Part shown: positions 19,818-55,913 of the stretch, piece by piece
Layout of the letters: every line of letters starts with the position of its first letter
Position numbering within the stretch: the first letter of the stretch is position 1
NCBI GenBank assembly: GCA_036403295.1
Contig: DASWRG010000058.1
Location: forward strand, 27,815-91,814
From: Pyrinomonadaceae bacterium
Lineage (GTDB): Bacteria > Acidobacteriota > Blastocatellia > Pyrinomonadales > Pyrinomonadaceae
Reading direction: 5' to 3'
Length of the DNA: 64,000 nt
Position numbers and translations under genes: made by a program
Notes under the pieces: generated by a model
Seen by the model: only the letters and a program-made list of their open reading frames with translations
Told to the model about the DNA's origin: nothing
Databases searched by the model: none

Positions 19818-19820
19818 GGT

Positions 19821-24001: not shown

Positions 24002-24217
24002 AGCCCCGCCAGGGGCGGCATAGATTTATGCTAATCAAAAGTAGAGCGTGATTAAACGGAAAAGCTTTATCTTTGCGCTCTTTGCGTCTTCCTTCTTTGC
24101 GGTCTTTGCGTTTAAGTTGAAGCTTAAACGCAAAGCACGCAAAGGAAATCTCGCAAAGTACGCAAAGTTATTTTCTACTCTTGTTTCGCATAGATTTATG
24201 TCGCCCCTGACGAGGCT
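24002..24217. repeat. ~216-bp imperfect palindrome: a CTTTGCG-family hairpin (core 24071-24168) enclosed by ~30-bp outer inverted repeats
   Basis: The outer arm 24002-24031 matches the reverse complement of 24188-24217 at 25/30 positions by hand alignment. The inner arms are ctttgcgctctttgcgtcttccttctttgcggtctttgcgtttaag / cttaaacgcaaagcacgcaaaggaaatctcgcaaagtacgcaaag. Confidence 0.7.
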
Positions 24218-24313
24218 GGAACTCATTCTGGCTTATGTCGAATTCACGTTAAATTAGATAGCTCGCCCGTGATATTTATGATATAAAAGGCCGCAAGTAA
24301 GGAGCTAACTCAT

Positions 24314-28373: not shown

Positions 28374-28571
28374 ATGATTACAGAAGAACCGGCGGCGGAA
28401 ATTAATCGGGGGCTAACTTTAGCCGAGCGTCGCGCCCACATGAAGTTACCTCTGGCCGAACGCCGCAGGCAATTAGCCGAGCAAGCCGAGCGCATGATTG
28501 AGCATTACGAATCAGAGCCGGAAGCGATGGAACGCGAGTCGTGGCAGGGAGGAGATATTGTCGAATCTTAA
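28374..28571 (+). CDS. Putative antitoxin partner of MazF
   Basis: Small ORF with an acidic C-terminus that overlaps the toxin gene start. It has a strong RBS (AGAGGAGAGAGG). I recognise no fold. Confidence 0.45.
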   Translation: MITEEPAAEINRGLTLAERRAHMKLPLAERRRQLAEQAERMIEHYESEPEAMERESWQGGDIVES

Positions 28572-28923
28572 TCCTCTTGCGCCGAAGCGCGGTGAGATTT
28601 GGCTGGTCAATTTCGACCCGACGGTGGGAGCTGAGATCAGAAAGACTCGTCCTGCCGTAGTTGTTAGCTCGGATGCGGTCGGGCGTTTGCCCATCAAAGT
28701 GGTTGCTCCGGTGACGGACTGGAAAAATCATTACGCTCCAAATATCTGGCACATTCGAATTGATCCCGATTCAATTAATCATCTCGCTAAGACTTCAGCC
28801 ATAGACGTGTTGCAACTGCGAGGCATGGATCAGCAGCGATTCATTCGCCTGCTTGGAAAAGTCTCAGCTGAAACGCTGGAAGAAATTGTGCTCGCTATCG
28901 CAGCTATCATCGAATATCAGTAG
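28498..28923 (+). CDS. mazF: MazF/PemK-family type II toxin endoribonuclease
   Basis: PKRGEIWLVNFDPTVGAEIRKTRPAVVVS...VAPVT is the canonical PemK/MazF signature. The start is uncertain: ATG 28498, or TTG 28558, which would overlap the antitoxin stop. Confidence 0.85.
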   Translation: MSITNQSRKRWNASRGREEILSNLNPLAPKRGEIWLVNFDPTVGAEIRKTRPAVVVSSDAVGRLPIKVVAPVTDWKNHYAPNIWHIRIDPDSINHLAKTSAIDVLQLRGMDQQRFIRLLGKVSAETLEEIVLAIAAIIEYQ

Positions 28924-32139
<3,216 letters not shown>

Positions 32140-32142: not shown

Positions 32143-32259
32143 TCACCGCAGAGACGCGGAGACGCAGAGGAAAAATAAGAGTAGGCAGTTAGCAGTGCGC
32201 AGTTGGTAGTAATACTTGACTTTTATCTTTCTTGTATCGTCTCTGCGTCTCTGCGGTGA
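32143..32259. repeat. Tandem-unit hairpin element, CGCAGAGA family, with a ~67-nt loop containing GCAGTT tandem units
   Basis: tcaccgcagagacgcggagacgcagagg ... cgtctctgcgtctctgcggtga. The loop contains aggcagttagcagtgcgcagttgg. Confidence 0.8.
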
Positions 32260-33561: not shown

Positions 33562-33615
33562 CAGGTTTAAGTCAGGCGATAAATTTTCAGCGACGCGTTG
33601 AGGAGAGACTTGGGA

Positions 33616-34035
33616 ATGCTCGGTGCGATACTTCTGCAAACAACTGCGGCACATCAGGTGGGCAGTCCGATCACGGCTTACTGGCCGGTGATGATCTTCT
33701 TCGTCTTTGCTCTCATCTTCCCGGTGCTGCCGATTGTGTTAGGACGCTTCGTGCGTCCGATGATTTACAACAAGGCGAAGATGCGGCCTTATGAGTGCGG
33801 CATAGACCCGACGACGGAGGCGCACGACCGCTTCACGGTTCGTTACTACATCGTCGCCATGCTCTTTCTGATCTTCGATGTCGAGACGATTTTTCTGTTG
33901 CCGTGGGCGATTATCTTCATGGGCGACGATTTCACTTTCACCAAATTCGCCTTGATAGAGATGTTCGTCTTCATCGGCATCCTGATCGTCGGCTACTACT
34001 ACGCTTGGCGCAAAGGCGCGCTGGAATGGGCTTAA
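33616..34035 (+). CDS. nuoA: NADH-quinone oxidoreductase subunit A
   Basis: The YECG..P motif (PYECGIDP), three TM helices, and a GAGGAGAG RBS upstream of ATG 33616. Confidence 0.9.
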   Translation: MLGAILLQTTAAHQVGSPITAYWPVMIFFVFALIFPVLPIVLGRFVRPMIYNKAKMRPYECGIDPTTEAHDRFTVRYYIVAMLFLIFDVETIFLLPWAIIFMGDDFTFTKFALIEMFVFIGILIVGYYYAWRKGALEWA

Positions 34036-34037: not shown

Positions 34038-34098
34038 CAGTTTTCAGTTTTTAGTTTTCAGCACGAACTAAAAACTAAAAACTGAAAACTGAAAACTG
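34038..34098. repeat. Tandem-unit hairpin element, AGTTTTY family (copy 1 of 4)
   Basis: cagttttcagtttttagttttcag - cacgaa - ctaaaaactaaaaactgaaaactgaaaactg. It starts 2 nt after the nuoA stop and ends 3 nt before the nuoB ATG. Confidence 0.9.
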
Positions 34099-34101
34099 AT
34101 T

Positions 34102-34743
34102 ATGGCTGAACACGAAGAAGGATTTGTCTTAACGACGGTTGATTCGATCATCAACTCTGTGCGGCGCAGTTTGGGCGCGAAGGCGATGGATGTGGGCGCG
34201 CCTGTGGTCAACTGGGCGCGCAAGTCCGCGCTGTGGCCGATGACGTTCGGCCTCGCCTGTTGCGCGATTGAGATGATTGCGACCGGCGCGGGACGCTTTG
34301 ACATAGACCGTTTCGGCGCGGGAGTCTTTCGCCCGTCGCCCCGACAGAGCGACCTGATTATCATCGCGGGCACTGTGACCTTGAAGATGGGGCCGGTCGT
34401 CCGCAGAGTTTACGAGCAGATGCCCGAGCCGAAATGGGCGATAGCGATGGGCGCGTGCGCTTCGACCGGCGGGCCGTTCGATTCTTATTCCACCATGCAA
34501 GGCGTTGATCGCTGCATCCCGGTGGACGTTTACATCCCCGGCTGCCCGCCGCGTCCCGAAGCCCTGCTCTATGGCCTGATGCGCCTCCAAGACATCATCA
34601 TGCGCGAACATCCGTCGGCCTATATCTTTGAATCGGACGGCACGGTCCATCGCCGCCGCCAGCTCGAAGGCGATGACGAGCTGCAAGAGCTTTCGCCTCT
34701 CGACCGTGAAGCCGAAGAGGCTGTGACGGCTATCATGAAATAG
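34102..34743 (+). CDS. nuoB: NADH-quinone oxidoreductase subunit B
   Basis: GLACCAIEM...[10 protein letters not shown]...[10 protein letters not shown] (N2 cluster ligands). Confidence 0.95.
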
Positions 34744-34929
34744 CCGTCGCGCCATGTCAGCTGCATCGGCGCATAAAAGCGGCGCGTTCTTGCCCGCTCA
34801 AAATAGTTGTTGAGTTTCCAACCTTATCAGAGTAAGCTCTCGGCGCTTATTTAGCAGGCTTTCTTTCCCGCGATTCGCTCAACCGCCGTCTCTTAGTCAG
34901 GCAACAAACTACAACCGGAGGACAACCTC

Positions 34930-36300
34930 ATGAATCTCCAATCGTTAATCACATGGGTGCAGGCACATCCTAGCGGCGCTATCTTCTTAGGCATCATGCT
35001 GTTCTTCGTTCTGATGGGAGTAGCCCAGAAGATAGGCTGGCATATCTGGTATTTCGTCGTGCCCCTGCTGGCTTTATTCGGAGCGCGGGCGATAGGCGAT
35101 CTGCTCTACTTCTATGCCTTCGTGTTGGGCATGCTGACCGCTTTCGCCGAAATCATCAGCAAGTTTAATGATGAGCCCATCAAGTCGCTCAAGACGCCGC
35201 ATGCGGTGATCTATCACACGTTGAATGGGTTGATTGCGGCCTTCGCGCTGTACGTGCTCTACATCTTCGGAGTTGCCAGCAACACCCCGGCAGACCAGTT
35301 GAAGCTGGTGCTGGCTGCCGGGCTCGGTTCAATGTTGGTGATGCGCTCCAAGCTGTTCAATATCAAATCCGGCGAAGAAGACATCTCATTCGGCCCCGAA
35401 CAAATCATCAAGATTTACTTTCGCTTTATGGAAGCCGCGATTGATCGCGTCCGGGCGCGCTCAAGAATCTCATTCATCAAAACAAAGATGGGTAATATTC
35501 ATTTCGAGAAGGTCTATGAACATAGCTTAACCATGCTTCGGGCGCCGCAGGCGTGGGATCCTAAAGCCAAAACTTTATGTCAGGCTGAGATAATGAAGCT
35601 CAAGGAAGAGGTGGCGGACGTGCAGCTCAAATCCTACCAGTTGGGCTTTGTCCTCATGAACGCGATGGGCGAAGATTTTGTCTCTGAACTCTTCGACAAT
35701 GCTTCGGATGACTGGAAAATCGACCCGTCAAAGGAAAAGGATGGCAAGAAGAAAAATCTCTTCTCGGTGGAGGAATCGAATCCGCTCTCCGCGCTCCCGT
35801 TCATCGGCACCAAAAATCAGAGCTATTTCGCCTACGGCTCGAATATGTCCGAGCAGAAGTTGCTCACACGGCTGGGCTGGGAGGTTGAGGAGACCCAATT
35901 CCCGGCCTTGACGAAGCCCCAAAAATGCGTCCTCGAAAACTACCGCCTCGCTTTTAACAAGCCGGATCGTGAGGGACCGAATGCGGAAGGGATGCCCAAC
36001 ATCGTGGAAACACCCGGCGGAAAGGTCGAAGGAATCTTATATCAACTCCCGAAGGATGCAATGGAGATTATTGACTACTCCGAAGTCGGTTACAAACGAA
36101 AGCCGGATGTAGAGGTGAAGGTCGGTAACAAAAAGATGAAAGCGCACGTCTATGTCGCGGAATCAACCTCCGAAGGACTCAAACCGAATACAGAATCCTT
36201 ATCCCTGGTGCTGGACGCGGCGAGGACGCAGCAGCTAGACCCGGAATATATCAAGGAGCTTGAAGCCTGGAAAAATGAGCCGGTCAGCCGCCGCGTTTAA
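34930..36300 (+). CDS. Multi-pass membrane protein fused to a C-terminal gamma-glutamylcyclotransferase (GGCT/AIG2-like) domain
   Basis: There are four or more N-terminal TM helices. The C-terminal YFAYGSNMSEQKLLTRLG...ENYRLAFNKP...GKVEGILYQL...AHVYVA fits the GGCT/AIG2 pattern. A GGAGGA RBS is present. Confidence 0.6.
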   Translation: MNLQSLITWVQAHPSGAIFLGIMLFFVLMGVAQKIGWHIWYFVVPLLALFGARAIGDLLYFYAFVLGMLTAFAEIISKFNDEPIKSLKTPHAVIYHTLNGLIAAFALYVLYIFGVASNTPADQLKLVLAAGLGSMLVMRSKLFNIKSGEEDISFGPEQIIKIYFRFMEAAIDRVRARSRISFIKTKMGNIHFEKVYEHSLTMLRAPQAWDPKAKTLCQAEIMKLKEEVADVQLKSYQLGFVLMNAMGEDFVSELFDNASDDWKIDPSKEKDGKKKNLFSVEESNPLSALPFIGTKNQSYFAYGSNMSEQKLLTRLGWEVEETQFPALTKPQKCVLENYRLAFNKPDREGPNAEGMPNIVETPGGKVEGILYQLPKDAMEIIDYSEVGYKRKPDVEVKVGNKKMKAHVYVAESTSEGLKPNTESLSLVLDAARTQQLDPEYIKELEAWKNEPVSRRV

Positions 36301-36379
36301 GAAGCCGCTGCCCGCGCGATGAGTTGACACATCTTTCGATCATCGAGAGCGCGAGCTGCGCGATTCGTCGTTGAATACG

Positions 36380-37012
36380 CTACAGGCCGGAGAGGTGGCG
36401 CGTGTCGTTGATGGCGAGCACGCGGACAAAGCCGTCTGTGCGCAGGTCAATTCGTGAGATGCCGCAGTTGGCCGTGCTAATCCAGACTGGTTTCAACTCC
36501 GGCGCGTCGAGTGCGCCCATCAGATGCAGTGTGAGAATGCAGATCGTGCCGGTGTGCGTGAAGATGGCGACGCGCCCGCCTTTGTGCGCGGCGATGATCC
36601 GGTCTAGCTCGCGTGAGGCGCGGTCGAGCATCTGGCGATAGCTCTCGCCGCCTAAAATTACGTGCTCGAAATCTCTCCTAAGCAACGCCGCATATTGTTC
36701 AGGATGCTGTGCGGCGGCCTCTTCAAAAGACAAGCCTTCCATCACGCCGACGCTGCGTTCACGAAAAGCCTCTGTCGATAAGACCTCAAGCCCTGTGAGC
36801 TGCGCGAGCGGCGTCGCCGTCGCCACTGCGCGCGGCAAGTCTGACGAATAAATCGCGTTGAACTTTTCCGGCGCGAGCGCACGCGCCGTCGCGTCCGCTT
36901 CACGCCGCCCGCGCTCCGAGAGCGGCGTCGCCGTGTGTCCGCCAAAACGCCCCTCCGCGTTGCCCTCGGATTGACCATGACGGATTAGAAGCAATCTTGT
37001 CGTTTCAGACAT
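36380..37012 (-). CDS. Histidine phosphatase family protein (phosphoglycerate mutase-like)
   Basis: LLLIRHGQSEGN (RHG motif) and a later H in IFTHTG. ATG 37012 is preferred because the longer ORF start lies inside the hairpin arm. Confidence 0.8.
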   Translation of the reverse strand: MSETTRLLLIRHGQSEGNAEGRFGGHTATPLSERGRREADATARALAPEKFNAIYSSDLPRAVATATPLAQLTGLEVLSTEAFRERSVGVMEGLSFEEAAAQHPEQYAALLRRDFEHVILGGESYRQMLDRASRELDRIIAAHKGGRVAIFTHTGTICILTLHLMGALDAPELKPVWISTANCGISRIDLRTDGFVRVLAINDTRHLSGL

Positions 37013-37020
37013 AGTAAAAA

Positions 37021-37099
37021 AGTGATGGGTCATGAGTGATGAGTGATGAGAGACAAGCTGTTGTCTTTAACTCATTACTCGTCACTCATCACTCGTCAC
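37021..37099. repeat. Tandem-unit hairpin element, GTGATGA family
   Basis: gtgatgggtcatgagtgatgagtgatgagagacaagct ... ctcattactcgtcactcatcactcgtcact. Confidence 0.8.
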
Positions 37100-37104
37100 T
37101 GCTT

Positions 37105-38181
37105 TTACGCCGCGACTGCTTCGGCCTTCAGCTTTTCTGCCTGGTAATGTGTCGTGAGGGCGTTGATGATTTCGTCGAGCGCACCTTCCATGACGAGGTT
37201 TAGTTGATGAATGGTCAGGCCGATGCGATGGTCTGAGACGCGGTTATCTTTAAAGTTGTAAGTGCGAATCTTTTCCGAGCGGTCGCCTGAGCCGACCATC
37301 GAGCGGCGTTCGGAGGCGAGGGCTTCGTGCTGCTTCTGCTCTTCCAATTCCTGAAGGCGCGCACGCAGGACTCTCATCGCCTTCTCACGATTCTTGATCT
37401 GCGATTTCTCGTCCTGCATCGAGACGACCGTGTTGGTCGGAAGATGCGTGATGCGAACCGCCGAGTAGGTCGTGTTCACAGACTGGCCGCCCGGCCCCGA
37501 AGAGCAGAAGGTGTCTATGCGTAAATCCTTCTGGTCAATCTTCACGTCAACCTCTTCGGCTTCGGGCAGCACCGCGACGGTGACGGCGGAGGTGTGTATG
37601 CGCCCGCTCGTCTCAGTCTGCGGAACGCGCTGGACGCGATGAACGCCGGATTCGTGTTTGAGCTTCGAGTAAACCTTGTCGCCTTCGATCAAAGCGATGG
37701 CTTCCTTGACGCCGCCGATGCCGGATTCCGAAGCGTCCATAATCTCCATGCGCCACCCCTGCCGCTCGGCGTAACGCGCGTACATCCTGAGCATCTCGGC
37801 TGCAAAGAGCGATGCCTCGTCGCCGCCCGTTCCCGCGCGAATCTCCAGGATGACGTTCTTCTCATCATTCGGGTCTGACGGAATCAGAAGCAGCTTCAAG
37901 TCCGCGTCGCACTGCTCAAGCCGCGCCTGCAAAGTGTCAATCTCAACGCGAGCCAGCTCGCGCATCTCTTCGTCGTCGGCTGTGTCGAGCAGTTCGCGCG
38001 CGCCCGTCAACTGGTCATTTAAAGCTTTCCACTCGCGGTATTTTTCCACGACTTCGCCGAGACTCCGATGCTGCTTCGCGGCCTTCGTGTAAGCAGCTTG
38101 ATCCGGGAATGAATCCCTCGAAGAGAGCTGTTCGGTCAGCTCTTCATAGTGTGTGACAATTTGTTCTAATCTATCGAGCAT
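37105..38181 (-). CDS. prfA: Peptide chain release factor 1
   Basis: It has the GGQ motif ([11 protein letters not shown]) and the RF1-type P-x-T motif ([14 protein letters not shown]). Confidence 0.95.
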
Positions 38182-38202
38182 AATTTATATTTTGATTTTG
38201 AT

Positions 38203-38766
38203 TTACTTGTTTCTGGCAGCAAACAGTTTGGCAATGCTGTATCGAAAGCCGGGCACTACGTCCTGTCCATCGAGCGCATCGGTTTCTGTCAGCGTGACCG
38301 CTTCAATTCCTGCGCGATGAACGGTGACAGTGCGACGCTTCGGATAGACCATCCAGACCATGCGAACGCCTGCCGCGAAGTACTCTCTGATTTTCTCTTC
38401 CATCTCGCGGCGACTATTGCCGGGCGAGATTACTTCAACCGCCAGGTCAGGGCCGCCCGGCCAATACGCAACGGGAATGCCTGTCTCAGGAATTCGCTCA
38501 TTGCTGATGAACGCGAAGTCAGGCGCAAGCACGGTGTCAGGGTTGCTCGCCAGCTTGAAGCCCGTCTCTGCGCCAAAGGTCACACCAAGATCATGTGCCT
38601 CGACGTGACTTCCAAGTGCGATGGTCAATCTGGCGACGAGCATGCCGTGCTCGCTTCCCGGCGGTGACATCTTTCTTAATTCTCCCTTCACGAGTTCATA
38701 GAGAAAGCCGTCCTCCGGCATCACGAAAAGCTCGTCAGCCGTCATCGTTTGAACTGTCGTGCTCAT
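38203..38766 (-). CDS. Uma2-family (DUF820) putative restriction-endonuclease-fold protein
   Basis: YELVKGEL..MSP....H......L...L.........ETGF...........PD.AF......P.....PDLAVEV.SP.. is the characteristic Uma2 pattern. Confidence 0.8.
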   Translation of the reverse strand: MSTTVQTMTADELFVMPEDGFLYELVKGELRKMSPPGSEHGMLVARLTIALGSHVEAHDLGVTFGAETGFKLASNPDTVLAPDFAFISNERIPETGIPVAYWPGGPDLAVEVISPGNSRREMEEKIREYFAAGVRMVWMVYPKRRTVTVHRAGIEAVTLTETDALDGQDVVPGFRYSIAKLFAARNK

Positions 38767-38792
38767 GGCATGCCTCCCTTCAATCAGGTCAA

Positions 38793-40004
38793 TCAGGCGA
38801 GCGGAGTGGCCGCCGCTTCTTCGGGTTGTGGCTCAAGCTTGAGCGATTCTTTCAAAGCCTCTATCGCAACTTCCAACTGCTGATCGTCAGGCTCTTTGGT
38901 CGTGATGTTTTGCAGCCAGACGCCCGGCAGCGTAATCAGTTTGAAAATAAAGCCGCCCTCTTTTTTCGCGGAGAGGCGAATGATCTCATACGAGACTCCG
39001 GCGACGAGCGGAATCAGAGCGATTCGCACGAGCATATTGTAGATGAGCGAATCGAACTTGATGATCGAAAAGAGCACGATTGAAACCAGCATCACGACCA
39101 TCAGAAAACTCGTCCCGCAACGCGGATGCTGGCGCGGCTGCGGGCGCGCGTTCTCGACCGTCAAAGGCAAGCCCGCTTCCCAGGTGAAGACGGTCTTGTG
39201 CTCCGCGCCGTGATATTCAAAGACGCGCCGGATGTCCTTCAAAAGCGAGAAGCTGAAGATCATAATCAGAAAGAACGACATGCGTATCAAGCCGTCAATC
39301 AGATTAAAAGAGACTGACGGACGCACGGGGCGCAAATAAGTGCGGACGCTTTTCCATGTGCGCGCGTACCAGGCTTCATCAACCGCCGGAACATTCTTGA
39401 CAGCATTGCTTTCATCCGTCGCTGTTGCGGCGCGCGACCCTGTTTGCTGTTGCGCGCTCGCGGCCTCAGTCGGCGTGTTGGCCCACCCTGCGGCGATGAA
39501 GATCGCGTTCGTCAAGAGGAGCGGCGCGACGATGAAGAGCAGCACGTTGAAAAAGAGCGCGAAGACGATAGAGCCTGCGGCGGCTGACGTGCCGCCCTTT
39601 TTCATCTCGTCTCTGGCGCGTCTTTCGGTCGGAATCGGAATCAGGCCGGGCACGGCTCCGGTGATGCCCGCGAAGTCTCCTTCGCCTTCGATGACGGCGG
39701 GCGTCAAAGCGACTTGAACCTCTTTCTCTGTGGCCTGCTCCGTGTCGGCGAAGGCTTCGTTGGCCGAAAAGTTCAGAGCCTTGATGCCGAGTCCCATTGA
39801 TTGCACGAGCACAGCACCGCCGCGCAAGATCGGCAGCTTCAAAAGCGGATGCTTGTCGCTCCATTTCGGCAGCGCGGCGGCGGTGTTGACAATCGTGCCA
39901 TCGGCTTTGCGCACGGCGATGGCGTAAGCGTTCGGCGTTCGCATCATCACGCCCTCGATGACGGCTTGCCCGCCGACGATCAAATCTCTTTCATTAGTGC
40001 TCAC
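38793..40004 (-). CDS. DUF1385 (YqhQ-like) membrane protein
   Basis: The N-terminal [15 protein letters not shown] and C-terminal YHGAEHK motifs are present. It lies between rpmE and prfA, as in many bacteria. Confidence 0.8.
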
Positions 40005-40197
40005 GGTTTTGAATTCCTTTACATGAAAGTGCTGCTTGAATAGAGCAACGCCGACCTCTGTGTCGGTCGCCCCCTCGTTTAATCATACACGAAGAGCGAC
40101 CGGACGTGAGCGTCGGCGTTCAGGTTTGGTTGATGCTAATGTTGCGGCGCGTTCAAATACATTTGCGTTGTATTGCGCTCGTTCGATTTCGCTAACT

Positions 40198-40443
40198 TTA
40201 CTGCGCGGGCGCAGCTTCCGTCGCAGGCTCGGCTTCGGCCTGTTTCTTGGCGTAGCGTTTGTTGAAACGGTCGACGCGTCCAGCCGTGTCTACGAGCTTT
40301 TGCTTGCCCGTAAAGAACGGGTGGCACGCCGAGCAGATTTCCACATGCAGCTCGTCTTTACGCGTCGAGCGCGTCGTAAAAGTCTCGCCGCAGGCGCACT
40401 GCACTTTGATTTCGTGATATTCGGGATGGATTCCTTGCTTCAT
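40198..40443 (-). CDS. rpmE: 50S ribosomal protein L31 (Zn-ribbon type)
   Basis: [27 protein letters not shown]...[16 protein letters not shown] 40443 is preferred over the longer ORF. Confidence 0.95.
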
Positions 40444-40732
40444 GATTCCTTTTGCTTCCTTCTGGTCTATAGACGACAATCTGCGTCTCACTTGAAACAA
40501 TCTATGATACGTTTTCAAGCGTCGCAGAGTCAAGTTTGATGCGCCTTTGAAGCCTGACGCTGCTACATTTTTGAAGTTGTTGACAAGCGCGCAAAACGCA
40601 TGTTACAACGCACGTGGCCGTCCTTTCGTACTTTTGCATTTAGACAAACAGGGAAACTTCTCTGCGCGGTGGCGGTCTGTCAAAACCGCGCGCGCAGGGT
40701 TTCGGGCAGGGTGTAAGCGCAAAGACCTTTAG

Positions 40733-41869
40733 ATGGCAGACGAAACCAAAGAGCCGCAGTCGCCTCCTCCTTCGACTGACGAGAGCGCGAGCGATGAGCC
40801 GCGCGCTCCCGCACGCCCACGCACAGACGACAAAAGCCCCAGCCCCGGCTTTGAGAGCAAAGACGCGGGCGACCTTCCCGCACCGACGACAGACGCTCCG
40901 CCGCCGACTTCCGAAAGTCAGGCTGCTCTGACGGGCAAAGCTCCTTCGGGCAGCTCCGCGAGCGGCACGACCGTTCCGGCTTCGTCCGGCGACCCGTCAA
41001 AAAATCAGACTCCAACGGTTGAAAGTACAGCAGCGCAGCCGCCCGGCGGCGCGTCGCCTGCGGTTGGCGACCCGCTCAAGCAGCCTTCACAGTCCGACGC
41101 AGAGAAGGCCGCGAAGATTGCCGAAGCAAAGGCGCGCGCCGCAGCCGCCAAGCAGGCCGCAGGCGACAAGCTCGCTCCCGCGCAACCCACAGCAGCCGCG
41201 CCGAAAGCTCCCGTCAAGAAAAAAGACGAAGGACCGAAGCCGACTGATGCCGCGACGCATCCACTCGTCGAAAAGCTGCGCCAGCATTTCGCGGAGGCGA
41301 TCATCGAAGCGTCAGAGTTCATCGGTCAGCTTTCAGTTCGCGTCGCGCCGTCGAGCATCGTCGCCGTCTGCAACTTTTTACGACGTGACGCCAAGACGCC
41401 CTTCAATTATCTGGCGGACGTGACCTGCGTGCATTTCCCCGACCGCGCCGACGCGCCCTTCGAGATGATCTACAATCTTTATTCAATCAGCGCGAACGAG
41501 CGCGTACGTTTGAAGGCGGCGGTCAGTGAAGACGAAGGCATCGAGAGCGTGACGGGCGTGTGGCCTGCCGCAAACTGGATGGAGCGCGAGGTTTACGATC
41601 TCTTCGGCGTCACGTTTCACAATCACCCGGACTTGCGCCGCATCCTTTTGCCGCCCGACTGGGAAGGCCATCCGCTTCGCAAAGAATATCCGCTCGAATT
41701 CATGGAGAACAACTGGACGACCACGCACTTGCCGGAGTTCACCGAAGTCCAACGCGAGCAGCTTGAGCAACGCCGCGCTTATGGTTTAGAGGTTCTCTCC
41801 ATGCCCGAAGAGCGAAAAGTGCGCGAGATTTTCCGCGCAGGCAAAGAAGTGATGCCGAAGGATAAATGA
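40733..41869 (+). CDS. nuoC: NADH-quinone oxidoreductase subunit C with a ~175-aa Pro/Ala/Ser-rich N-terminal extension
   Basis: The C-terminal ~200 aa are a typical NuoC (ANWMEREVYDLFGVTFHNHPDLRRIL). The N-terminal part is low complexity, and no alternative in-frame ATG/GTG/TTG lies near the domain start. Confidence 0.85.
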   Translation: MADETKEPQSPPPSTDESASDEPRAPARPRTDDKSPSPGFESKDAGDLPAPTTDAPPPTSESQAALTGKAPSGSSASGTTVPASSGDPSKNQTPTVESTAAQPPGGASPAVGDPLKQPSQSDAEKAAKIAEAKARAAAAKQAAGDKLAPAQPTAAAPKAPVKKKDEGPKPTDAATHPLVEKLRQHFAEAIIEASEFIGQLSVRVAPSSIVAVCNFLRRDAKTPFNYLADVTCVHFPDRADAPFEMIYNLYSISANERVRLKAAVSEDEGIESVTGVWPAANWMEREVYDLFGVTFHNHPDLRRILLPPDWEGHPLRKEYPLEFMENNWTTTHLPEFTEVQREQLEQRRAYGLEVLSMPEERKVREIFRAGKEVMPKDK

Positions 41870-41870
41870 A

Positions 41871-41952
41871 GGAGTCAGAACACAGGACTCAGGAGTCAGA
41901 ATAAAAACAGCTTGCCTTTCATTCTGAGTCCTGAATCCTGAGTCCTGAATTC
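41871..41952. repeat. Tandem-unit hairpin element, GAGTCCT/CAGGACT family
   Basis: ggagtcagaacacaggactcaggagtcagaat ... attctgagtcctgaatcctgagtcctgaattc. Confidence 0.8.
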
Positions 41953-41958
41953 TATTTT

Positions 41959-42216
41959 ATGACTCCGAAAGAGTTGGCAACACATTACGGAGCGAAAGTT
42001 TTCGAGACGAACGAGGCGGCTGCGGCTGCGGGCTTCGTCGTGACGGAAACGATGACCCCGCGCAATATTTGGAACAAGGCGAGCGCGGCGCAGGCCATCA
42101 TCTATAAGTTGCTGGCGAAGAAGAGAAGCGGCGAAGCGCAGGAGATCGGTTTCGTGCTCGGAAATCACGACATCTCCGGTTGCTATCTTCCAACATCAGC
42201 CGAAGCTGAGACATGA
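41959..42216 (+). CDS. Hypothetical 85-aa protein inserted between nuoC and nuoD
   Basis: The ORF has a third-position G/C bias like neighbouring genes and is bracketed by two hairpin elements. I recognise no family. Confidence 0.45.
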   Translation: MTPKELATHYGAKVFETNEAAAAAGFVVTETMTPRNIWNKASAAQAIIYKLLAKKRSGEAQEIGFVLGNHDISGCYLPTSAEAET

Positions 42217-42248
42217 AATCTGAGATTTCAAATCTCAAATCTGAAATC
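42215..42248. repeat. Tandem-unit hairpin element, AAATCTS family
   Basis: gaaatctgagatttcaaatctcaaatctgaaatc contains nested GAAATC/GATTTC and GATTTCA/TGAAATC stems. Confidence 0.7.
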
Positions 42249-42253
42249 CGTTT

Positions 42254-43387
42254 ATGCATCAAGTAGAAATCGCCACCACGCGTGAGACGCTGCTCGACAG
42301 CCCCGAAATGGTCTTGAACATGGGGCCGCAGCACCCCTCAACACATGGAGTGTTGCGCGTCATCCTGCGCCTCGACGGCGAGACGGTGATTGATCTGGAT
42401 TGCGACATCGGCTTTCTGCATCGAGGGATGGAGAAGATTGCGGAGAGTCGCCAGTATCCGATGATCGCGCCTTACTGGGACAGGCTCGATTACATCGCGG
42501 CGGTCTCGAACGGCCTCGTCTGGGTCGAGACGGTCGAGCAGATGATGGGCCTGGACGTTCCGCCGCGCGCTCATTACCTCCGCACGATCTTGACGGAGCT
42601 GAATCGCATCGCCTCGCACCTGCTCTGGCTCGCCACGCACGGCCTCGACATAGGCTCTTTCACAGTCTTGTTGTGGGCCTTGAGAGAGCGCGAGGAGATT
42701 CTGAAAATTTTCGAGCGACAGTTCGGCGCGCGCCTCACTTGTCACGCGTGGCGCATCGGCGGAATGCCGAACGACGCTTACGACGGCTTTCAAAAAGACG
42801 TGCAGCAGTTCGTCAACAATTTTCCGAAACGGATAGACGAGTACGAGACTCTGCTTTCGGAGAATCGCATCTGGCTCGGACGCACGGTTGGAGTCGGCGT
42901 CATCTCCGCCGAAGACGCGATTGCCATCGGGCTTTCCGGCCCGGCCTTGCGCGGCTCTGGCGTCGCGTGGGACATACGCAAGACGCGTCCGTATGCCGCC
43001 TATGCCGATATGGATTTCGACATTCCGGTCGGTGAGAACGGCGACACCTATGATCGTTACCTCGTGCGCCTCGAAGAGATGAAGCAGTCGCGTCGCATTA
43101 TTCAGCAGGGGATTGATAAGCTGCCGGACGGCCCCGTCAACGCCAAAGTCCCGAAGATTATCAAGCCGCCCGCAGGCGATTATTATCATTCCATCGAAGG
43201 ACCGAAGGGCGAAATCGGTTGTTACCTGGTCTCGGACGGCACGGCCAGCCCCGCGCGCGTCCGCGTGAGGCCGCCATGCTTCATCAACTTGCAGGCTCTG
43301 AGGCAGATGTGCCTCGGCCACCTGGTCGCGGATGTCGTGGCGATTATCGGAACGCTCGACATCGTGCTTGGTGAAATTGATAGATAG
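42254..43387 (+). CDS. nuoD: NADH-quinone oxidoreductase subunit D
   Basis: [14 protein letters not shown]...[12 protein letters not shown]...[10 protein letters not shown]. Confidence 0.95.
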
Positions 43388-43473
43388 TTTTCAGTTTTCA
43401 GTTTTTAGTTTTTAGTTCTTAGTTCGCGGCTCGATAGTTCTTTCTGAAAACTGGAAACTAAAAACTGAAAACT
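43386..43473. repeat. Tandem-unit hairpin element, AGTTTTY family (copy 2 of 4)
   Basis: agttttcagttttcagtttttagtttttagttcttagttcg ... ctgaaaactggaaactaaaaactgaaaact. It overlaps the nuoD stop and abuts the next ATG. Confidence 0.9.
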
Positions 43474-43932
43474 ATGAAAGTCGTTCATCTCAAAATCCAG
43501 CCGATGACGCGCGAGGCGTTTGCGCCGTATGGAATTTTGATTGACAGTCGCGGTTCGGTGGAGATTGATTTAGGGAAGGGCGCTCCGAGCTTGACGGGCG
43601 CGACCTCAGAGCGCAGGCCGTTCGGCTTTGAGTTTATGGCGCGGCACAGGCTAACGATGCAGGTCTTTTCGCCGCTCGCTTCGTCGGAATCAATCATCGC
43701 CGTCGCTCCGCCGAACGAGTTGGACGCGCCTGAGATTGAACGGATCGCGGCGTTTCATGTGAGCGGGCGACTTCCTTACGCGTATCACAAGGGGACTTGG
43801 CACACGCCGCCGTTTCCGGTTCAAGATTGGTCTTCGTATCTGGTGGTGGACAGGAGCGGGACGCTCGACGACGATTGGGAATTGGTTGACCTCAGGGTCA
43901 CGCATCAGACCGTGTTCGAGATCGATTTTTAA
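43474..43932 (+). CDS. Ureidoglycolate lyase (AllA)-like cupin protein embedded in the nuo operon
   Basis: Hand alignment to E. coli AllA pairs IQPMTREAFAPYGILID with LPLSQEAFSAYGDVIE, ARHRLTMQVFSPL with ERHPLGTQAFIPM, YHKGTWHTPPF with YHRNVWHHPLF, and VVDRSG with TIDRGG. Confidence 0.7.
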   Translation: MKVVHLKIQPMTREAFAPYGILIDSRGSVEIDLGKGAPSLTGATSERRPFGFEFMARHRLTMQVFSPLASSESIIAVAPPNELDAPEIERIAAFHVSGRLPYAYHKGTWHTPPFPVQDWSSYLVVDRSGTLDDDWELVDLRVTHQTVFEIDF

Positions 43933-43948
43933 GCAGAGATAAAAAAGG

Positions 43949-45322
43949 ATGCTCGCACTCTTTGCGCCAAATTTTATAGACAGCCTCTTGCTGAAGTGGT
44001 TCAGTCAGGAGACGATCAACTACTTCATCTGGCCTTTCATACAGATCGGCGCGGTCGTCACCGGAGTCGCGTTCTGGGCTTTGTATGCGACCTATGCCGA
44101 GCGGAAGATTTCCGCTTTCATGCAGGCTCGTCTGGGTCCGATGCGTGTCGGCAAGTGGGGCTTGTTGCAGCCGATTGCGGACGCCATCAAGCTCTTGACG
44201 AAAGAGGACGTGCTGCCGGATAAAGCAGACCCGTATATCTTCAAGTTTGCGCCGTACATCTCTGTCGCCGCCGCCTTCATCGTCTTCGCCGTGATTCCGT
44301 TTGCGCCGAGTTGGGGCGTGATTACGGACGTGAATATCGGCCTGCTGTTAGTGCTCTCGATTTCGAGCATCGGTGTGCTCGCGTTGATTCTGGCGGGCTG
44401 GTCATCGAACTCGAAATATTCACTGATGGGCGGCCTGCGTTCTTCGGCGCAGATGGTTTCGTATGAAGTGGCGATGGGCTTGTCGCTCATCGGCGCGCTG
44501 ATGTTCGCGCGGACGCTAAGCTTGTCAGGCATCGTCAACGCACAGGCGGTTGACGGACCTCTGCCTTATATCTTTTATCAACCGCTCGCCTTTATCACTT
44601 TTTTGATTAGCGGTATCGCGGAGAACAATCGCGCGCCGTTCGATTTGCCGGAAGCGGAGTCGGAATTGGTCGCGGGCTTTCACACTGAATATTCGGGGAT
44701 GCGTTGGTCGCTCTTCTTCATGGCTGAGTACGCGGCGATGGTCGTCGTCGCGGCGGTGGCGACGGCTGTGTTTTTGGGCGGGTGGTACGTGCCGTTCATT
44801 TATCGTTGGACGGAAGCTTACCATCAGGCGGCTCTGATGAACGGAAATCCCGACGGAGCGCAACTCTATCACGGCCTTTACGTCATCATCTGCCTCATCG
44901 CTTTTCTGGTGAAGATGGCGGTATTGCTGTACGTCTATTTCTGGCTGCGTTGGACGTTTCCGCGTTATCGTTACGATCAGTTGATGGATTTGGGGTGGAA
45001 GTGGCTGATTCCGGCTGCGCTGACGAATATCGTGTGGACTGCCCTCTCGATTTTCACAGTGCAGGCGCTCGACGGTTGGCGCGGGATGAAGACTATCGAA
45101 TCGGTCTCGCAGGGATTAAACTTAACGCCGAGCGGGAAAGCCATCATGGTCGCCTTCGGTTTTCTCGGATTGCTCGTCACAGCCGGAGTGCTCTCGACGA
45201 TTAACTGGCGTTCGCGCGATTTCAATTTGAAAGGGCAGCGTCGAAACATTCGCCTTGTAAAAGACGTGCCCAAAGGCAAGCCTGCGGTCGCGCCCGCGAG
45301 CACGGCCACGCAGGAATCATAA
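43949..45322 (+). CDS. nuoH: NADH-quinone oxidoreductase subunit H (long form, ~100 extra C-terminal residues)
   Basis: AERKISAFMQARLGPMRVG..GLLQPIADAIKL and AENNRAPFDLPEAESELVAGFHTEYSG. Confidence 0.95.
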   Translation: MLALFAPNFIDSLLLKWFSQETINYFIWPFIQIGAVVTGVAFWALYATYAERKISAFMQARLGPMRVGKWGLLQPIADAIKLLTKEDVLPDKADPYIFKFAPYISVAAAFIVFAVIPFAPSWGVITDVNIGLLLVLSISSIGVLALILAGWSSNSKYSLMGGLRSSAQMVSYEVAMGLSLIGALMFARTLSLSGIVNAQAVDGPLPYIFYQPLAFITFLISGIAENNRAPFDLPEAESELVAGFHTEYSGMRWSLFFMAEYAAMVVVAAVATAVFLGGWYVPFIYRWTEAYHQAALMNGNPDGAQLYHGLYVIICLIAFLVKMAVLLYVYFWLRWTFPRYRYDQLMDLGWKWLIPAALTNIVWTALSIFTVQALDGWRGMKTIESVSQGLNLTPSGKAIMVAFGFLGLLVTAGVLSTINWRSRDFNLKGQRRNIRLVKDVPKGKPAVAPASTATQES

Positions 45323-45326
45323 AATC

Positions 45327-45346
45327 AATTTGAGATTTCAGATTTG
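45327..45346. repeat. Solo AAATCTS-type arm; a 20-mer identical to 26973-26992
   Basis: AATTTGAGATTTCAGATTTG occurs at both loci. Confidence 0.7.
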
Positions 45347-45371
45347 GGATTGAAAAGCAGTAGGAGAGTTT

Positions 45372-45905
45372 ATGCCAGCAGTAAATATTCCGCAGCCGAC
45401 GTTTATGGAGAAGGTCAAACGCTTTTTTATGTTTGACTTGTTGAAGGGCCTGGGGTTGACGTTGAAGTACAACATCGGCGCGATTACGGACAAGGATGCG
45501 GTCGCGGGGCGCGGCATCTATACGGAGCAGTATCCGAAGGTGCGACCCGAAGTCGCGCCGCGCTTTCACGGCGCGCCGCGTCTCAACATGGACCCTGAGA
45601 CTCACGATACTCTCTGCATCGCTTGCAACCTCTGCGCGCTCGCCTGTCCAGAAGACTGCATTGATGTCATCCCGATGGACATCGAGATTATGGTCGCGGG
45701 CAAGGCGCGCAAGAAAAAAGTTTTGGACGAGTTTATCTTTGATACCTCTCGCTGCATGTTCTGCGCTCTGTGTCAGGAAGCCTGCCCGACGAACTGTCTG
45801 GAGCTGACGCAGGACTTCGAGCTGGCGACCTACTCGCGCGCGGGCTTTGTCTGGGATCGCGTGATGCTTGAGCAGGGACGCGAGACGGTGAAGTACGAAG
45901 CATAA
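45372..45905 (+). CDS. nuoI: NADH-quinone oxidoreductase subunit I
   Basis: Two 4Fe-4S motifs, CIACNLCALACP and CMFCALCQEACP, with an AGGAGAG RBS. Confidence 0.95.
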   Translation: MPAVNIPQPTFMEKVKRFFMFDLLKGLGLTLKYNIGAITDKDAVAGRGIYTEQYPKVRPEVAPRFHGAPRLNMDPETHDTLCIACNLCALACPEDCIDVIPMDIEIMVAGKARKKKVLDEFIFDTSRCMFCALCQEACPTNCLELTQDFELATYSRAGFVWDRVMLEQGRETVKYEA

Positions 45906-45908
45906 GAG

Positions 45909-45996
45909 CAGTTTTTAGTTTTCAGTTTTTAGTTTTCAGTCGTTCATCTGCGCTGAAACTTTATGGCTGAAAACTAAAAACCGAAAACTGAAAACT
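45909..45996. repeat. Tandem-unit hairpin element, AGTTTTY family (copy 3 of 4)
   Basis: cagtttttagttttcagtttttagttttcag ... gctgaaaactaaaaaccgaaaactgaaaact. It abuts the nuoJ ATG. Confidence 0.9.
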
Positions 45997-46644
45997 ATGG
46001 TTCTGACCGGTTGGGAAGCCGTCTTTTTCTGGATATTTGCGATAGCCGCGTTGGTGGCGGGGTTGTTGACTGTGCTGGCGCGCAACGCCGTGCATAGCGC
46101 GCTGTTTCTGATCTCATCGCTGGTGTCTGTGGCCGCGCTCTTCGTGCTGCTCGGCGCGGAATTCATCGCGGGCGTGCAGGTCTTGGTTTACGTCGGCGGC
46201 GTGATGGTCTTGTTCCTGTTCGTCATCATGCTGGTCAACGTCGGCGCGGAAGAGCGCGGGCGCGAGGAAATCTTCAATCGCACGCCGCAGGTCGTGACGA
46301 GCATCGTTTTCTCGCTGCTGTTGGCGTTGGGTCTGGTCTTTGCCATCAATCAAGGCTTAACCGGACTGCGCAAACGCGATGATGCCTCCATCAGTCAGGC
46401 GGAAAAACTTCGCGCCGCGCAACAGCAGAGCTTGCAGACTTCGGCCACCGGCTCGACGAAGATTACCAGGGACACGGAAAACGTCGGCTCAAGCCTCTAT
46501 CGTTACGGCAGCCTCGCGTTTGAGATCGCCAGCCTCTTGCTGCTCGTCGCCATCATAGGCTCTGTCATGCTCGCGCGCACAGTCAAGCAGGAGGCCGCAG
46601 CAAATGATATTGACCCGGAAAGCTTAGTGATAAGTGATGAGTGA
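45997..46644 (+). CDS. nuoJ: NADH-quinone oxidoreductase subunit J
   Basis: It has the typical NuoJ TM pattern (NAVHSALFLI...GAEFIAGVQVLVYVGGVMVLFLFVIML). The last codons (VISDE*) lie inside a hairpin arm. Confidence 0.9.
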   Translation: MVLTGWEAVFFWIFAIAALVAGLLTVLARNAVHSALFLISSLVSVAALFVLLGAEFIAGVQVLVYVGGVMVLFLFVIMLVNVGAEERGREEIFNRTPQVVTSIVFSLLLALGLVFAINQGLTGLRKRDDASISQAEKLRAAQQQSLQTSATGSTKITRDTENVGSSLYRYGSLAFEIASLLLLVAIIGSVMLARTVKQEAAANDIDPESLVISDE

Positions 46645-46698
46645 TAAATGATAAGAGACAAGCTATTCGGATTTTCTTATCACTCATCACCTGTCACT
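46626..46698. repeat. Tandem-unit hairpin element, GTGATGA family
   Basis: agtgataagtgatgagtgataaatgataagagacaagct ... cttatcactcatcacctgtcact. It shares AGAGACAAGCT with the element at 37021. Confidence 0.8.
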
Positions 46699-46709
46699 AA
46701 AAAAAACTT

Positions 46710-47108
46710 ATGAATGCAATTTATCCCGGTATGATTTTGTGGTGGCAGGAAGCGGGCAAGTGGGCGCAGGTGTGGGATAACATGAAGCAGCCGGACTTGT
46801 CGAAGTTTCTGGTCATCGGCGCGCTGCTTTTTATCATCGGCGTGGCGGGCGTGCTCACCAGGCGCAACATCATCGTCATCTTCATGTCCATCGAGCTGAT
46901 CTTGAACGCAGCTAACTTGAACTTCATCGCCTTCTCTCGTTACTTGCAGGACACGGGCAAGATGAACGCCATCGCCGGCCAGGTCTTTACGATCTTTATC
47001 ATCGTCGTCGCCGCCGCCGAAGCCGCCATCGGCCTCGGCATCGTCATCGCGCTCTATCGCAATCGGGAAACGATCTGGGTTGATGAGATTGATCTACTGA
47101 AATGGTAA
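46710..47108 (+). CDS. nuoK: NADH-quinone oxidoreductase subunit K
   Basis: [33 protein letters not shown]. The alternative start ATG 46782 (MKQPDLS...) would give the usual ~108 aa. Confidence 0.9.
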
Positions 47109-47111
47109 AGA

Positions 47112-47186
47112 CAGTTTTCAGTTTTTAGTTTTCAGTTTTAAGAAATCTGCTTGCACTGAAAACTAAAAACTGAAAACTGAAAACTG
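47112..47186. repeat. Tandem-unit hairpin element, AGTTTTY family (copy 4 of 4)
   Basis: cagttttcagtttttagttttcagttttaag ... ctgaaaactaaaaactgaaaactgaaaactg. It starts 3 nt after the nuoK stop and ends 3 nt before the nuoL ATG. Confidence 0.9.
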
Positions 47187-49779: not shown

Positions 49780-49901
49780 GCTGTGCTTTGGAATTTGTTC
49801 TTTGTGCTTTGCACGCGGCTCAACATTAAGCTCATCGCTCAAGCTTGAGCATTACGAACAAAGAACAAAAGACAAAGAACAAAGTACAAAAGACAAAAAT
49901 C
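49780..49901. repeat. Tandem-unit hairpin element, CTTTGTR family, with an inner palindrome GCTCAAGCTTGAGC
   Basis: gctgtgctttggaatttgttctttgtgctttgcacg ... cgaacaaagaacaaaagacaaagaacaaagtacaaaagacaaaaatc. Confidence 0.7.
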
Positions 49902-51600: not shown

Positions 51601-51702
51601 TTTTGCTCTTTGTACTTTGTGCTTTGCTTGTGAGTTTCAAACTTGAGAAATAGGCTCAATGCTGAGCCACTTGCAAAGCGCAAAGCACAAAGTACAAAAA
51701 TC
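51601..51702. repeat. Tandem-unit hairpin element, CTTTGTR family
   Basis: ttttgctctttgtactttgtgctttgcttgtgag ... cttgcaaagcgcaaagcacaaagtacaaaaatc. There are 19 nt of perfect complementarity (TTTGTACTTTGTGCTTTGC). Confidence 0.8.
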
Positions 51703-51708
51703 TAAAAT

Positions 51709-53274: not shown

Positions 53275-53327
53275 GGTGTAGTAAAAAGCGGGTCAGTTCC
53301 AAACGTGGAGAAGAAAAAGACGGTTTC

Positions 53328-53407
53328 CCGCAAAGGCGCAAAGAAAAGCACGCAAGGAACAAGCAGCATTCAGCGTCTTTGCGTTCTTCCTTTGCGCCTT
53401 TGCGCGA
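53328..53407. repeat. Tandem-unit hairpin element, CTTTGCG/CGCAAAG family
   Basis: cccgcaaaggcgcaaagaaaagcacgcaaggaac ... gtctttgcgttcttcctttgcgcctttgcgcg. It shares a 28-mer and an 18-mer with the element at 61213. Confidence 0.85.
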
Positions 53408-53422
53408 GATTCTTTGATTTCC

Positions 53423-54661: not shown

Positions 54662-54706
54662 GACATGGAGTCTGTCTTTTAACCTTGAACTTTGAACCTT
54701 GAACCC
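54627..54706. repeat. Tandem-unit hairpin element, GTTCAAR family
   Basis: aggttcaaagttcaaggttcaaagttcaaggttaagaca ... tgtcttttaaccttgaactttgaaccttgaaccct. Confidence 0.9.
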
Positions 54707-55838: not shown

Positions 55839-55913
55839 TTCAAAGTTCAAGGTTTAAGGTTCAAAGTTAATATCATCCTGCGAACCTTGAACCTTAAACT
55901 TTGAACCTTGAAC
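55838..55913. repeat. Tandem-unit hairpin element, GTTCAAR family
   Basis: gttcaaagttcaaggtttaaggttcaaagttaa ... cgaaccttgaaccttaaactttgaaccttgaac. Confidence 0.9.

Follow-up and report, generated by a model that had tools for sequence, protein, structure and literature searches.

The complex I (nuo) operon in a 64-kb stretch of a metagenome-assembled genome from the Pyrinomonadaceae (Acidobacteriota) contains four near-identical hairpins built from the 7-nt unit AGTTTTY and its complement RAAAACT. We refer to the whole 64-kb stretch as the window and number positions from its first nucleotide. Exact protein matches (NCBI HEY0545338–HEY0545365, encoded on a 142-kb contig) place it in a Pyrinomonadaceae genome. 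Our comparison with other genomes indicates that these hairpins belong locally to a class of palindromes found throughout the genome and the clade, in which two inverted tandem arrays of a 7-nt unit flank an unconserved loop and together fill an intergenic gap, mostly between cistrons of one operon. The AGTTTTY family is not specific to nuo; the occupancy of particular intercistronic gaps is conserved, while the unit family that occupies them turns over. Taken as a whole, these observations are best explained, with a probability that we put at roughly 45%, by palindromes that form through slippage and arm copying, mask a leader lacking a Shine–Dalgarno (SD) sequence, and couple the translation of successive cistrons.

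All four hairpins lie on the forward strand, as do the genes flanking them, and each spans its nuo gap from stop to start codon, with 0 to 3 nt between the upstream stop and the 5′ arm and 0 to 4 nt between the 3′ arm and the ATG. Hairpin 1 (34038–34098; 5′ arm 34038–34061, 3′ arm 34066–34098) separates nuoA (33598–34035; Pfam Oxidored_q4) from nuoB (34102–34743; Pfam Oxidored_q6), with a TAA stop 2 nt upstream and the ATG, starting at 34102, 3 nt downstream. Its 24-nt arms are 96% complementary, and the RNA folds at −29.3 kcal/mol (z −7.2). Hairpin 2 (43384–43475; arms 32 nt, 88%; −36.4 kcal/mol) lies between nuoD (42254–43387) and a cupin gene of the Ureidogly_lyase family, ureidoglycolate-lyase-like (43474–43932), and its stem includes the TAG stop codon of nuoD and the AU of the cupin AUG. 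Hairpin 3 (45909–45996; arms 30 nt, 93%; −41.8 kcal/mol) lies between nuoI (45372–45905) and nuoJ (45997–46644), the last base of its 3′ arm directly abutting the ATG. Hairpin 4 (47112–47186; arms 25 nt, 100%; −36.1 kcal/mol) lies between nuoK (46710–47108) and nuoL (47190–49778). Overall, arm lengths are 24 to 32 nt, complementarity is 88 to 100%, and the folding z-scores run from −6.7 to −8.3. A search of both strands of the window for the 21-mer AGTTTTYAGTTTTYAGTTTTY with up to two mismatches returned 18 matches, all within these four AGTTTTY/RAAAACT sites, compared with none in 100 dinucleotide-preserving shuffles. The initial annotation, made from the window alone, had reported four near-identical hairpins of this family, all in nuo gaps, and these data bear it out, positions included.

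Tandem Repeats Finder gave a period of 7 and 3.4 to 5.7 copies per arm, that is, at least three head-to-tail copies, which makes each arm a tandem heptanucleotide repeat; the unit, AGTTTTY/RAAAACT, contains no GG. The loops are unrelated among the four copies and among 20 copies elsewhere, no flank is duplicated, and the short flanking sequences (5′/3′) are CG/GATT, none, GAG/none, and AGA/GCTT for hairpins 1 to 4. Two other metagenome contigs, 99.9% identical to the window, hold copies 2 and 3 unaltered, so the hairpins are not an assembly artefact. Between the window and these two contigs we found coding single-nucleotide polymorphisms only and no polymorphism in unit number. The suggestion that the roughly 25-nt direct repeats could mediate deletion or duplication of nuo segments is possible in principle, with no such variant in the two near-identical contigs.

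Several known classes of element were considered for the four copies and rejected. A terminator scan reported none of them, and their 3′ flanks are not T-rich, which argues against intrinsic terminators. At the Rfam 15 gathering score only a tRNA matches in the window; in E-value mode the hairpins give only sub-threshold matches to eukaryotic microRNA-precursor models, as generic long hairpins do. Miniature inverted-repeat transposable elements were rejected because both a conserved internal sequence and a target-site duplication are absent. Repetitive extragenic palindromes and bacterial interspersed mosaic elements (REP/BIME) were rejected as well, since the stems are 24 to 32 bp, lack the unpaired GTAG/CGTC tag, and have no transposase near the nuo copies; no REP-associated (RAYT, Y1) transposase was found among the window proteins scanned.

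The window holds 23 tracts of period 7 (0 to 1 in shuffles) and inverted pairs of several 7-nt unit families. Palindromes of two inverted 7-nt arrays occupy almost all nuo gaps and many of the others. Strong inverted repeats occupy 6 of 9 nuo gaps in the window versus 6 of 18 non-nuo gaps.

Outside the window, the 21-mer was sought in one genome per species, and the figures from that scan apply among the matches listed. It occurs in many Pyrinomonadaceae, in Blastocatellia and other Acidobacteriota, and in Planctomycetota. At least about 25 loci hold it as a hairpin, with the AGTTTTY array always first and never reversed. Their layout matches that in the window, two arms around an unrelated loop lying between a stop and a start codon. 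Nuo proteins are encoded at none of 119 AGTTTTY-bearing loci of other genomes. The hairpins of relatives lie instead in operons for sugar metabolism, microcompartments, and other functions, in the gaps phosphorylase|transaldolase, phosphoketolase|GAPDH, and bacterial microcompartment shell protein|aldehyde dehydrogenase|EutN, and among shikimate-pathway genes. The complete Pyrinomonadaceae genome OY970389 carries the family in nuo and, some 800 kb from there, as two hairpins within a microcompartment operon (locus L097), and OY969475 has an AGTTTTY hairpin outside nuo (L114) and none in nuoC–N. Confinement of the family to nuo gaps, as first described, is thus correct inside the window, where it follows from the small size of the window, and fails in relatives, whose hairpins lie in other operons.

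To describe the orthologous gaps we used 80 metagenomic loci with NuoJ proteins 66 to 85% identical, counted gaps of 40 to 300 nt, and took at least 16 Watson–Crick pairs as a strong inverted repeat. By this measure, 31 of the 32 nuoI|J gaps hold a strong repeat, as do 43 of the 50 nuoK|L gaps. Over all nuo gaps of these relatives, 135 of 210 have a strong stem, with period 7 in 90 of the 135, and the median distances are 5 nt from the stop codon to the 5′ arm and 12 nt from the 3′ arm to the start codon. More than 50 unit families are seen in the class, and the units at orthologous gaps differ: GTCCAAA, GTTTCGA, GTCAGTG, GGTGTCA, GTGATGA, GTAATGA, GGTCTTT, and others. AGTTTTY is present at nuoI|J in the window and in loci L123, L126, L162, and L322, and at nuoK|L in the window, L123, and L322. 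Hairpin 4 is orthologous to the nuoK|L copies in L123 and L322, with the common flanks AGA...GCTT. The closest relative by NuoJ (L122, 85% amino acid identity) has GTGGTCA at nuoI|J. Orthologous copies have unrelated loops and arms that retain the family.

Two complete, syntenic genomes, OY970389 and OY969475, each about 81% identical to the window, show how quickly the unit is exchanged. In OY970389 the nuoI|J and nuoK|L gaps contain AGTTTTY, and the nuoD|cupin gap contains AGTCTGG; the nuoC–N gaps of OY969475 have CTTTGTT, AAGTCYC, AGTCTGG, and an 8-nt unit. Both carry AGTCTGG where the window carries hairpin 2, and the comparison of orthologous nuo operons that had been proposed as a check speaks against an AGTTTTY element proper to complex I. 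The same family recurs across several nuo gaps in only 2 of 29 within-locus pairs of relatives, with a background of 8.5%, so that local clustering of one family was rejected as a general rule.

These results bear directly on the model put forward with the initial annotation, in which one sequence-specific factor (a protein, small RNA, or RNase) co-regulates four points of the nuo operon. We consider it the least likely of the explanations weighed here. The string CTGAAAACT(N0-4)ATG does stand exactly before all four genes (4 matches versus 0.03 expected), so that their pre-start strings are identical to that extent; the longer CTGAAAACTGAAAACT (16 nt) precedes nuoB and nuoL without mismatch but has one substitution at the cupin gene and one at nuoJ. 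The array also recurs before genes in many taxa and in phage contigs, and a trans-acting partner may exist, possibly the ribosome. Against the model, AGTTTTY is not nuo-specific, the orthologous gaps of close relatives carry unrelated units, and one family over several gaps is unusual among relatives; together, these three observations exclude a regulon conserved with complex I. A family without operon preference that varies among close relatives had been named as the finding that would refute the model, and it is mostly what we did find; the sharing of AGTTTTY by four nuo gaps would be a lineage-specific accident at most.

A second reading is that the palindromes are neutral or selfish mutational by-products of slippage and hairpin-templated copying, which sit where they are tolerated and have only generic hairpin effects. 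The rapid exchange of families between genomes about 81% identical fits such a process, as do gaps that in some relatives are simply short or overlapping (in L322, −8 for nuoJ|K and −4 for nuoC|orf). Heptamers are moreover the commonest long simple-repeat unit in prokaryotes, which passages in two papers ascribe to polymerase slippage (PMC4679880, PMC4692102). In addition, the roughly 19-kb prophage part of the window has no heptamer hairpins, compared with at least 16 in the 44 kb of chromosome to its right. This reading does not account for the near-universal occupancy of nuoI|J and nuoK|L in 80 relatives despite sequence replacement, nor for the strict arm polarity and the sense orientation of lone arrays described next. 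We regard it as a serious alternative, though on balance an unlikely one.

The two arms differ in composition. The stop-side (5′) arm is G/T-rich: among 58 distinct 5′-arm units, 40 contain GT and 7 contain AC (p about 1e-6), and 25 contain AGT versus 5 with ACT. An independent set of hairpins from other genomes, with 16 distinct units, gave GT in 12 and AC in none. Because such a palindrome is the same on both strands, transcription in either direction yields the G/U-rich arm first and leaves the A/C-rich, G-poor arm beside the start codon that follows. Variant units also stand in mirrored order in the two arms, with 1173 matches versus 1111.5 ± 7.4 after permutation of unit order; the count of 1173 is an upper bound, as the register was chosen to maximise pairing. 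Mirrored order points to arm-to-arm copying on top of slippage.

The G/T-rich arm suggests by analogy a further possibility, a protein-driven switch in which each molecule covers 7 nt: cold-shock-domain or S1-type proteins might coat either the G/U-rich or the A/C-rich arm, one protein per heptamer, and thereby open or close the hairpin depending on growth conditions. A cold-shock domain fits a heptanucleotide, and Bacillus CspB prefers GTCTTTG/T (PMC1904285); the 5′-arm units mostly contain GT and include GTCTTTG itself. Csp, S1, and CsrA have been proposed as binders of the TAACTGA repeats discussed below (PMC4679880). The argument is purely one of analogy, the GT-phased unit consensus departs from the CspB preference at position 3, and no cold-shock-domain gene lies within the window, and we think such a switch improbable.

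The start-proximal array also occurs by itself. Many viral contigs, mostly of 63 to 67% G+C, carry (GAAAACT)n without an inverted partner. We scored lone arrays followed within 40 nt downstream by the start of an open reading frame (ORF) of at least 80 amino acids. Among the matches listed, the GAAAACT reading preceded ORF starts in 74 cases (44 viral and 30 genomic), versus 17 for the AGTTTTC reading (9 viral and 8 genomic). Lone (GAAAACT)n arrays are thus preferentially sense-oriented, 0 to 25 nt upstream of start codons, in bacteria and in phage contigs alike, and the claim that the 5′ context of these genes matters is in this respect upheld. A strand-blind DNA process does not predict this bias. 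Several viral contigs (L257, L209, L236, L281, and others) have 3 to 7 sense (GAAAACT)n arrays, each lying 4 to 25 nt ahead of a gene start, which suggests that phages employ the pre-start array without a masking arm. The arrays in phage contigs are often preceded by degenerate ACTGACG or ACTGATA units, neighbours that link the GAAAACT family to the TAACTGA repeats.

Our favoured explanation, masking and coupling by palindromes that arise through slippage and arm copying, combines these features. Its account of origin and persistence is partly shown and partly inferred. Arrays would gain and lose 7-nt units through replication slippage, mirror-image arms would be maintained by the copying of one arm into the other, and at a given gap one unit family would supplant another within about 20% nucleotide divergence. 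Transcribed in the nuo mRNA, the element would form a stem of −29 to −42 kcal/mol that begins 0 to 5 nt past the upstream stop and reaches to 0 to 4 nt from the next AUG, which lacks an SD motif; none was found before nuoB, the cupin gene, nuoJ, or nuoL. The start-proximal arm, (GAAAACU)n, would be the same A/C-rich, G-poor pre-start leader that is found alone in sense orientation, and the stop-proximal arm, complementary to it, would mask both leader and AUG while the stem keeps stop and start codons side by side. A ribosome ending the upstream cistron would open the base of the stem and free the leader and AUG, and synthesis of the downstream subunit would then depend on translational coupling or re-initiation in place of independent initiation. 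Translation by a ribosome that has just finished the upstream cistron would suit an equimolar membrane complex. The long stem, having no U-tract, should let transcription continue and also protect the mRNA against exonucleases. It is well established that hairpins masking a start codon can couple translation, and the cauliflower mosaic virus 35S leader provides a case of ribosome shunting over a stable stem. The likeness to both (stop, a few nt, a long stable stem, a few nt, AUG) is a functional analogy only. We know of no description of ribosome shunting in bacteria.

A number of points weigh against this explanation. The proposed coupling function is derived from geometry. A test for selection at the RNA level, made on the sense strand of 135 stems, gave no signal, with 101 G-U versus 104 A-C mismatches; the test is a weak one, as the stems are far longer than pairing needs, and the equality is also what neutral formation would give. 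We rejected the idea that a 3′ overhang of the leader remains unpaired: unit numbers are equal between the arms (34 versus 32), so no stretch of leader is systematically left out of the stem. We likewise rejected the idea that the hairpins caused the loss of SD motifs, as these are scarce in nuo gaps throughout the clade (7 to 15%), with or without a hairpin. In the same loci, co-directional non-nuo gaps have a strong stem in 5 of 27 cases, a small baseline with cruder gene starts. High gap occupancy could reflect tolerance together with a high rate of formation rather than selection. Finally, in three relatives (L136, L174, and L192) a G+C-rich, GTAG-tagged palindrome of REP type (TTGTAGGGGCAGGG...CCCTGCCCCTACAA) replaces the heptamer hairpin at nuoK|L, as expected of a merely permissive site and in keeping with neutral by-products.

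The same replacement is compatible with REP-like elements of intercistronic processing or stability, in which case the hairpins would be RNase III substrates or barriers to 3′ exonucleases that segment or stabilise the nuo mRNA. Stems of at least 22 bp that are very stable and have no U-tract, placed between the cistrons of a long operon, are suited to such a role, and REPs, for which a role at the RNA level has been proposed, mostly follow coding regions (PMC3733652). Processing leaves the period of 7, the arm polarity, and the lone sense arrays before start codons unexplained, and the stems show no excess of G-U pairs. We judge it quite unlikely.

An extension of the masking and coupling explanation can be formulated as a single joint claim, which we consider a long shot. 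The heptamer palindromes would be an undescribed, clade-wide device of operon expression in bacteria that seldom rely on SD sequences. A sense (ACU-N4)n leader would be read by a partner with a 7-nt footprint, either a cold-shock-domain or S1-type protein or the ribosome, and the inverted copy would enforce a termination–reinitiation "shunt" over gaps of 60 to 150 nt, the leader being shared with phages, Beggiatoa, and cyanobacterial repeats. If true, the device would explain the long-noted excess of 7-nt repeats in prokaryotes as well as the strict G/T-first polarity of the arms.

Tandem heptamers have been encountered in other bacteria. The cyanobacterial STRR repeats described by Mazel and colleagues in 1990 reportedly have the units CCCCAGT, TTGGTCA, and CAACAGT, which also contain AGT or GGT. 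Heptamer repeats of TTTTGAA are known in Nostoc (bioRxiv 10.1101/2022.06.06.494920), and Geobacter metallireducens has sites of five MTYCTGA copies, mostly paired (PMC2700814). All three resemble the present class as intergenic tandem heptamers, often near start codons or promoters. They differ in taxa and units, and conserved occupancy of orthologous gaps with turnover of the unit has not been described for them.

A close structural counterpart is in Xanthomonas, where convergent inverted pairs of GGGAATC heptamer arrays are intergenic, number 70 to 75 per genome, and are mostly transcribed (Rehm et al. 2015, PMC4692102). As here, the two 7-nt arrays are closely spaced and inverted with the G-rich one first, and their length and sequence vary among related genomes while the single or paired type is retained. 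Unlike the dozens of units found here, of which AGTTTTY has no G-runs, the Xanthomonas arrays use one G-rich unit capable of forming G-quadruplexes, and no tie to stop and start codons or to gaps inside operons is reported for them. The TAACTGA repeats of Beggiatoaceae, cyanobacteria, and Bacteroidetes lie directly upstream of SD-less starts and have been proposed to act in translation (MacGregor 2015, PMC4679880). They are one base away from our unit in the same register (AAACTGA), share with it the forward orientation a few nt before SD-less start codons and a patchy taxonomic distribution, and have relatives in phage contigs that mix ACTGATA, ACTGACG, and GAAAACT arrays. They differ in that the unit here is AAACTGA/AAACTAA and that 169 direct sets were found there versus one inverted set, whereas each copy in the window has an inverted partner and forms a long hairpin. 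REP/BIME elements have stems of 5 to 13 bp and a conserved unpaired tetranucleotide tag, and the GTAG type has a dedicated RAYT transposase (PMC3733652). In common with the heptamer palindromes they are short, transcribed, and extragenic, often lie in operons, and occur as several families per genome, and a GTAG-type REP takes the same nuoK|L gap in three relatives. The stems of 24 to 32 bp made of 7-nt repeats, with neither tag, conserved loop, nor transposase in the window, set the present elements apart. We found in the literature neither a description of such repeats in Acidobacteria nor a relevant paper containing the exact arm strings. Four aspects are new here: a single genome has many unit families, orthologous gaps stay occupied despite unit turnover, the arms show a GT/AC polarity, and the paired palindromes are linked to the arrays that stand alone before start codons, phage contigs included.

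The remaining heptamer features of the nuo region, all on the forward strand, include an AGGACTC/AGGAGTC hairpin in the nuoC|orf85 gap (41865–41951), an AAATCTC/GAAATCT array that ends 3 nt before the nuoD ATG (42214–42250), and an AGTGATA/G hairpin in the nuoJ|nuoK gap, the 5′ arm of which overlaps the end of nuoJ (46624–46700). A TGTGCTT/CTTTGTT hairpin fills the nuoL|nuoM gap (49782–49895), and a CTTTGTA/G hairpin of −44 kcal/mol fills the nuoM|nuoN gap (51601–51706). Beyond nuo, an AGTGATG hairpin (37021–37100, minus strand) lies between a histidine phosphatase gene and prfA, both on the minus strand. GTTCAAR hairpins are found directly after a tRNA gene at 19742–19814 (19808–19919, with no strand assigned), in a glycosyltransferase|radical-SAM gap (54627–54705, plus strand; arms 26 nt, 100%), after the radical-SAM gene (55837–55913, plus strand), and between efp and a Kdo transferase gene (62641–62722, minus strand; −49.6 kcal/mol).

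Palindromes of 8-nt units (CGCAAAGR/CTTTGCG; CGCAGAGA) occur at 22748–23116, 23924–24313, 53325–53410, and 61197–61327, and also at 32143–32259. Two of these, rather than heptamer palindromes, border an ORF for an IstB-like protein (IS21 helper; 23117–23923), the only insertion sequence-related gene in the window. One 8-nt-unit palindrome directly follows the nuoN stop; its T-rich arm comes last, and it scores in part as terminator-like. Ordinary G+C-rich terminators occur elsewhere in the window. At 58178–58310, a lone CCTTTTA/ACTTTTT heptamer array comes after a canonical bidirectional terminator hairpin (AAAAGGCTTGTCGAAGCTT...AAGCTTCGACAAGCCTTTTTT) and upstream of a Ser/Thr kinase gene. The prophage part mentioned above (1–19061, about 19 kb) is a prophage or prophage remnant that adjoins the tRNA gene and encodes a lambda-family portal, a capsid protein, a tape-measure protein, and a 1235-residue pectate-lyase-like tail protein. 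A 135-nt tandem repeat (25006–25322; 2.3 copies, 70% matches) lies inside a minus-strand gene for a 628-residue FG-GAP repeat protein, and an ORF for a MazF/PemK-family toxin (28498–28923) ends exactly at the start of carB (28924–32139).

By Pfam assignment, the nuo genes run nuoA, nuoB, and a GGACT-like gene on the plus strand, then a minus-strand block, then nuoC, orf85, nuoD, cupin, nuoH, nuoI, nuoJ, nuoK, nuoL, nuoM, and nuoN. The block (34930–40539) encodes a histidine phosphatase, prfA, a Uma2 nuclease, a DUF1385 protein, and rpmE; in OY970389 an ECF sigma factor and FecR, not nuoAB, lie upstream of it. No nuoE, nuoF, or nuoG is present in the nuo region of the window, which indicates complex I of the 11-subunit type. 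The 85-residue orf85 product (41959–42216) has no Pfam match, and relatives keep the gene at the same place, after nuoC and before nuoD; the cupin gene that here separates nuoD from nuoH is shared by only a few of them. Accessory inserts in the nuo operon are bordered by hairpins. The nuoI|J gap is 400 to 500 nt long in about 30 other relatives, and in L184 a long nuoI|J gap contains a DinB-family ORF (9323–9853). NuoC (40733–41869) has an N-terminal extension of about 200 residues, its 30-kDa domain occupying residues 202 to 322 of 378; NuoK is extended at its N terminus by about 30 residues, and NuoL is long, at 862 residues.

The hairpins have practical consequences for annotation. Longest-ORF calling traverses the arms, so that the TTG at 49845 was called as the start of nuoM 57 nt before the real start, the ATG at 49902; the starts called at 53414 and 54699 are probably also too far upstream. 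The hairpins could also break assemblies. More generally, a repeat family that appears confined to one operon in a 64-kb window need not be operon-specific: the claim of nuo specificity is largely refuted, and the underlying class merits proper study. No other long simple repeats are as common in prokaryotes as tandem heptamers, and the cyanobacterial STRRs have been known since 1990. The relatives of this organism within the Pyrinomonadaceae constitute a natural experiment, in which the same gaps of an operon for an essential, equimolar 11-subunit complex retain a hairpin and swap its unit. Together with the lone arrays that precede start codons, the polarity of the arms makes a role of heptamer arrays in translation initiation or coupling testable.

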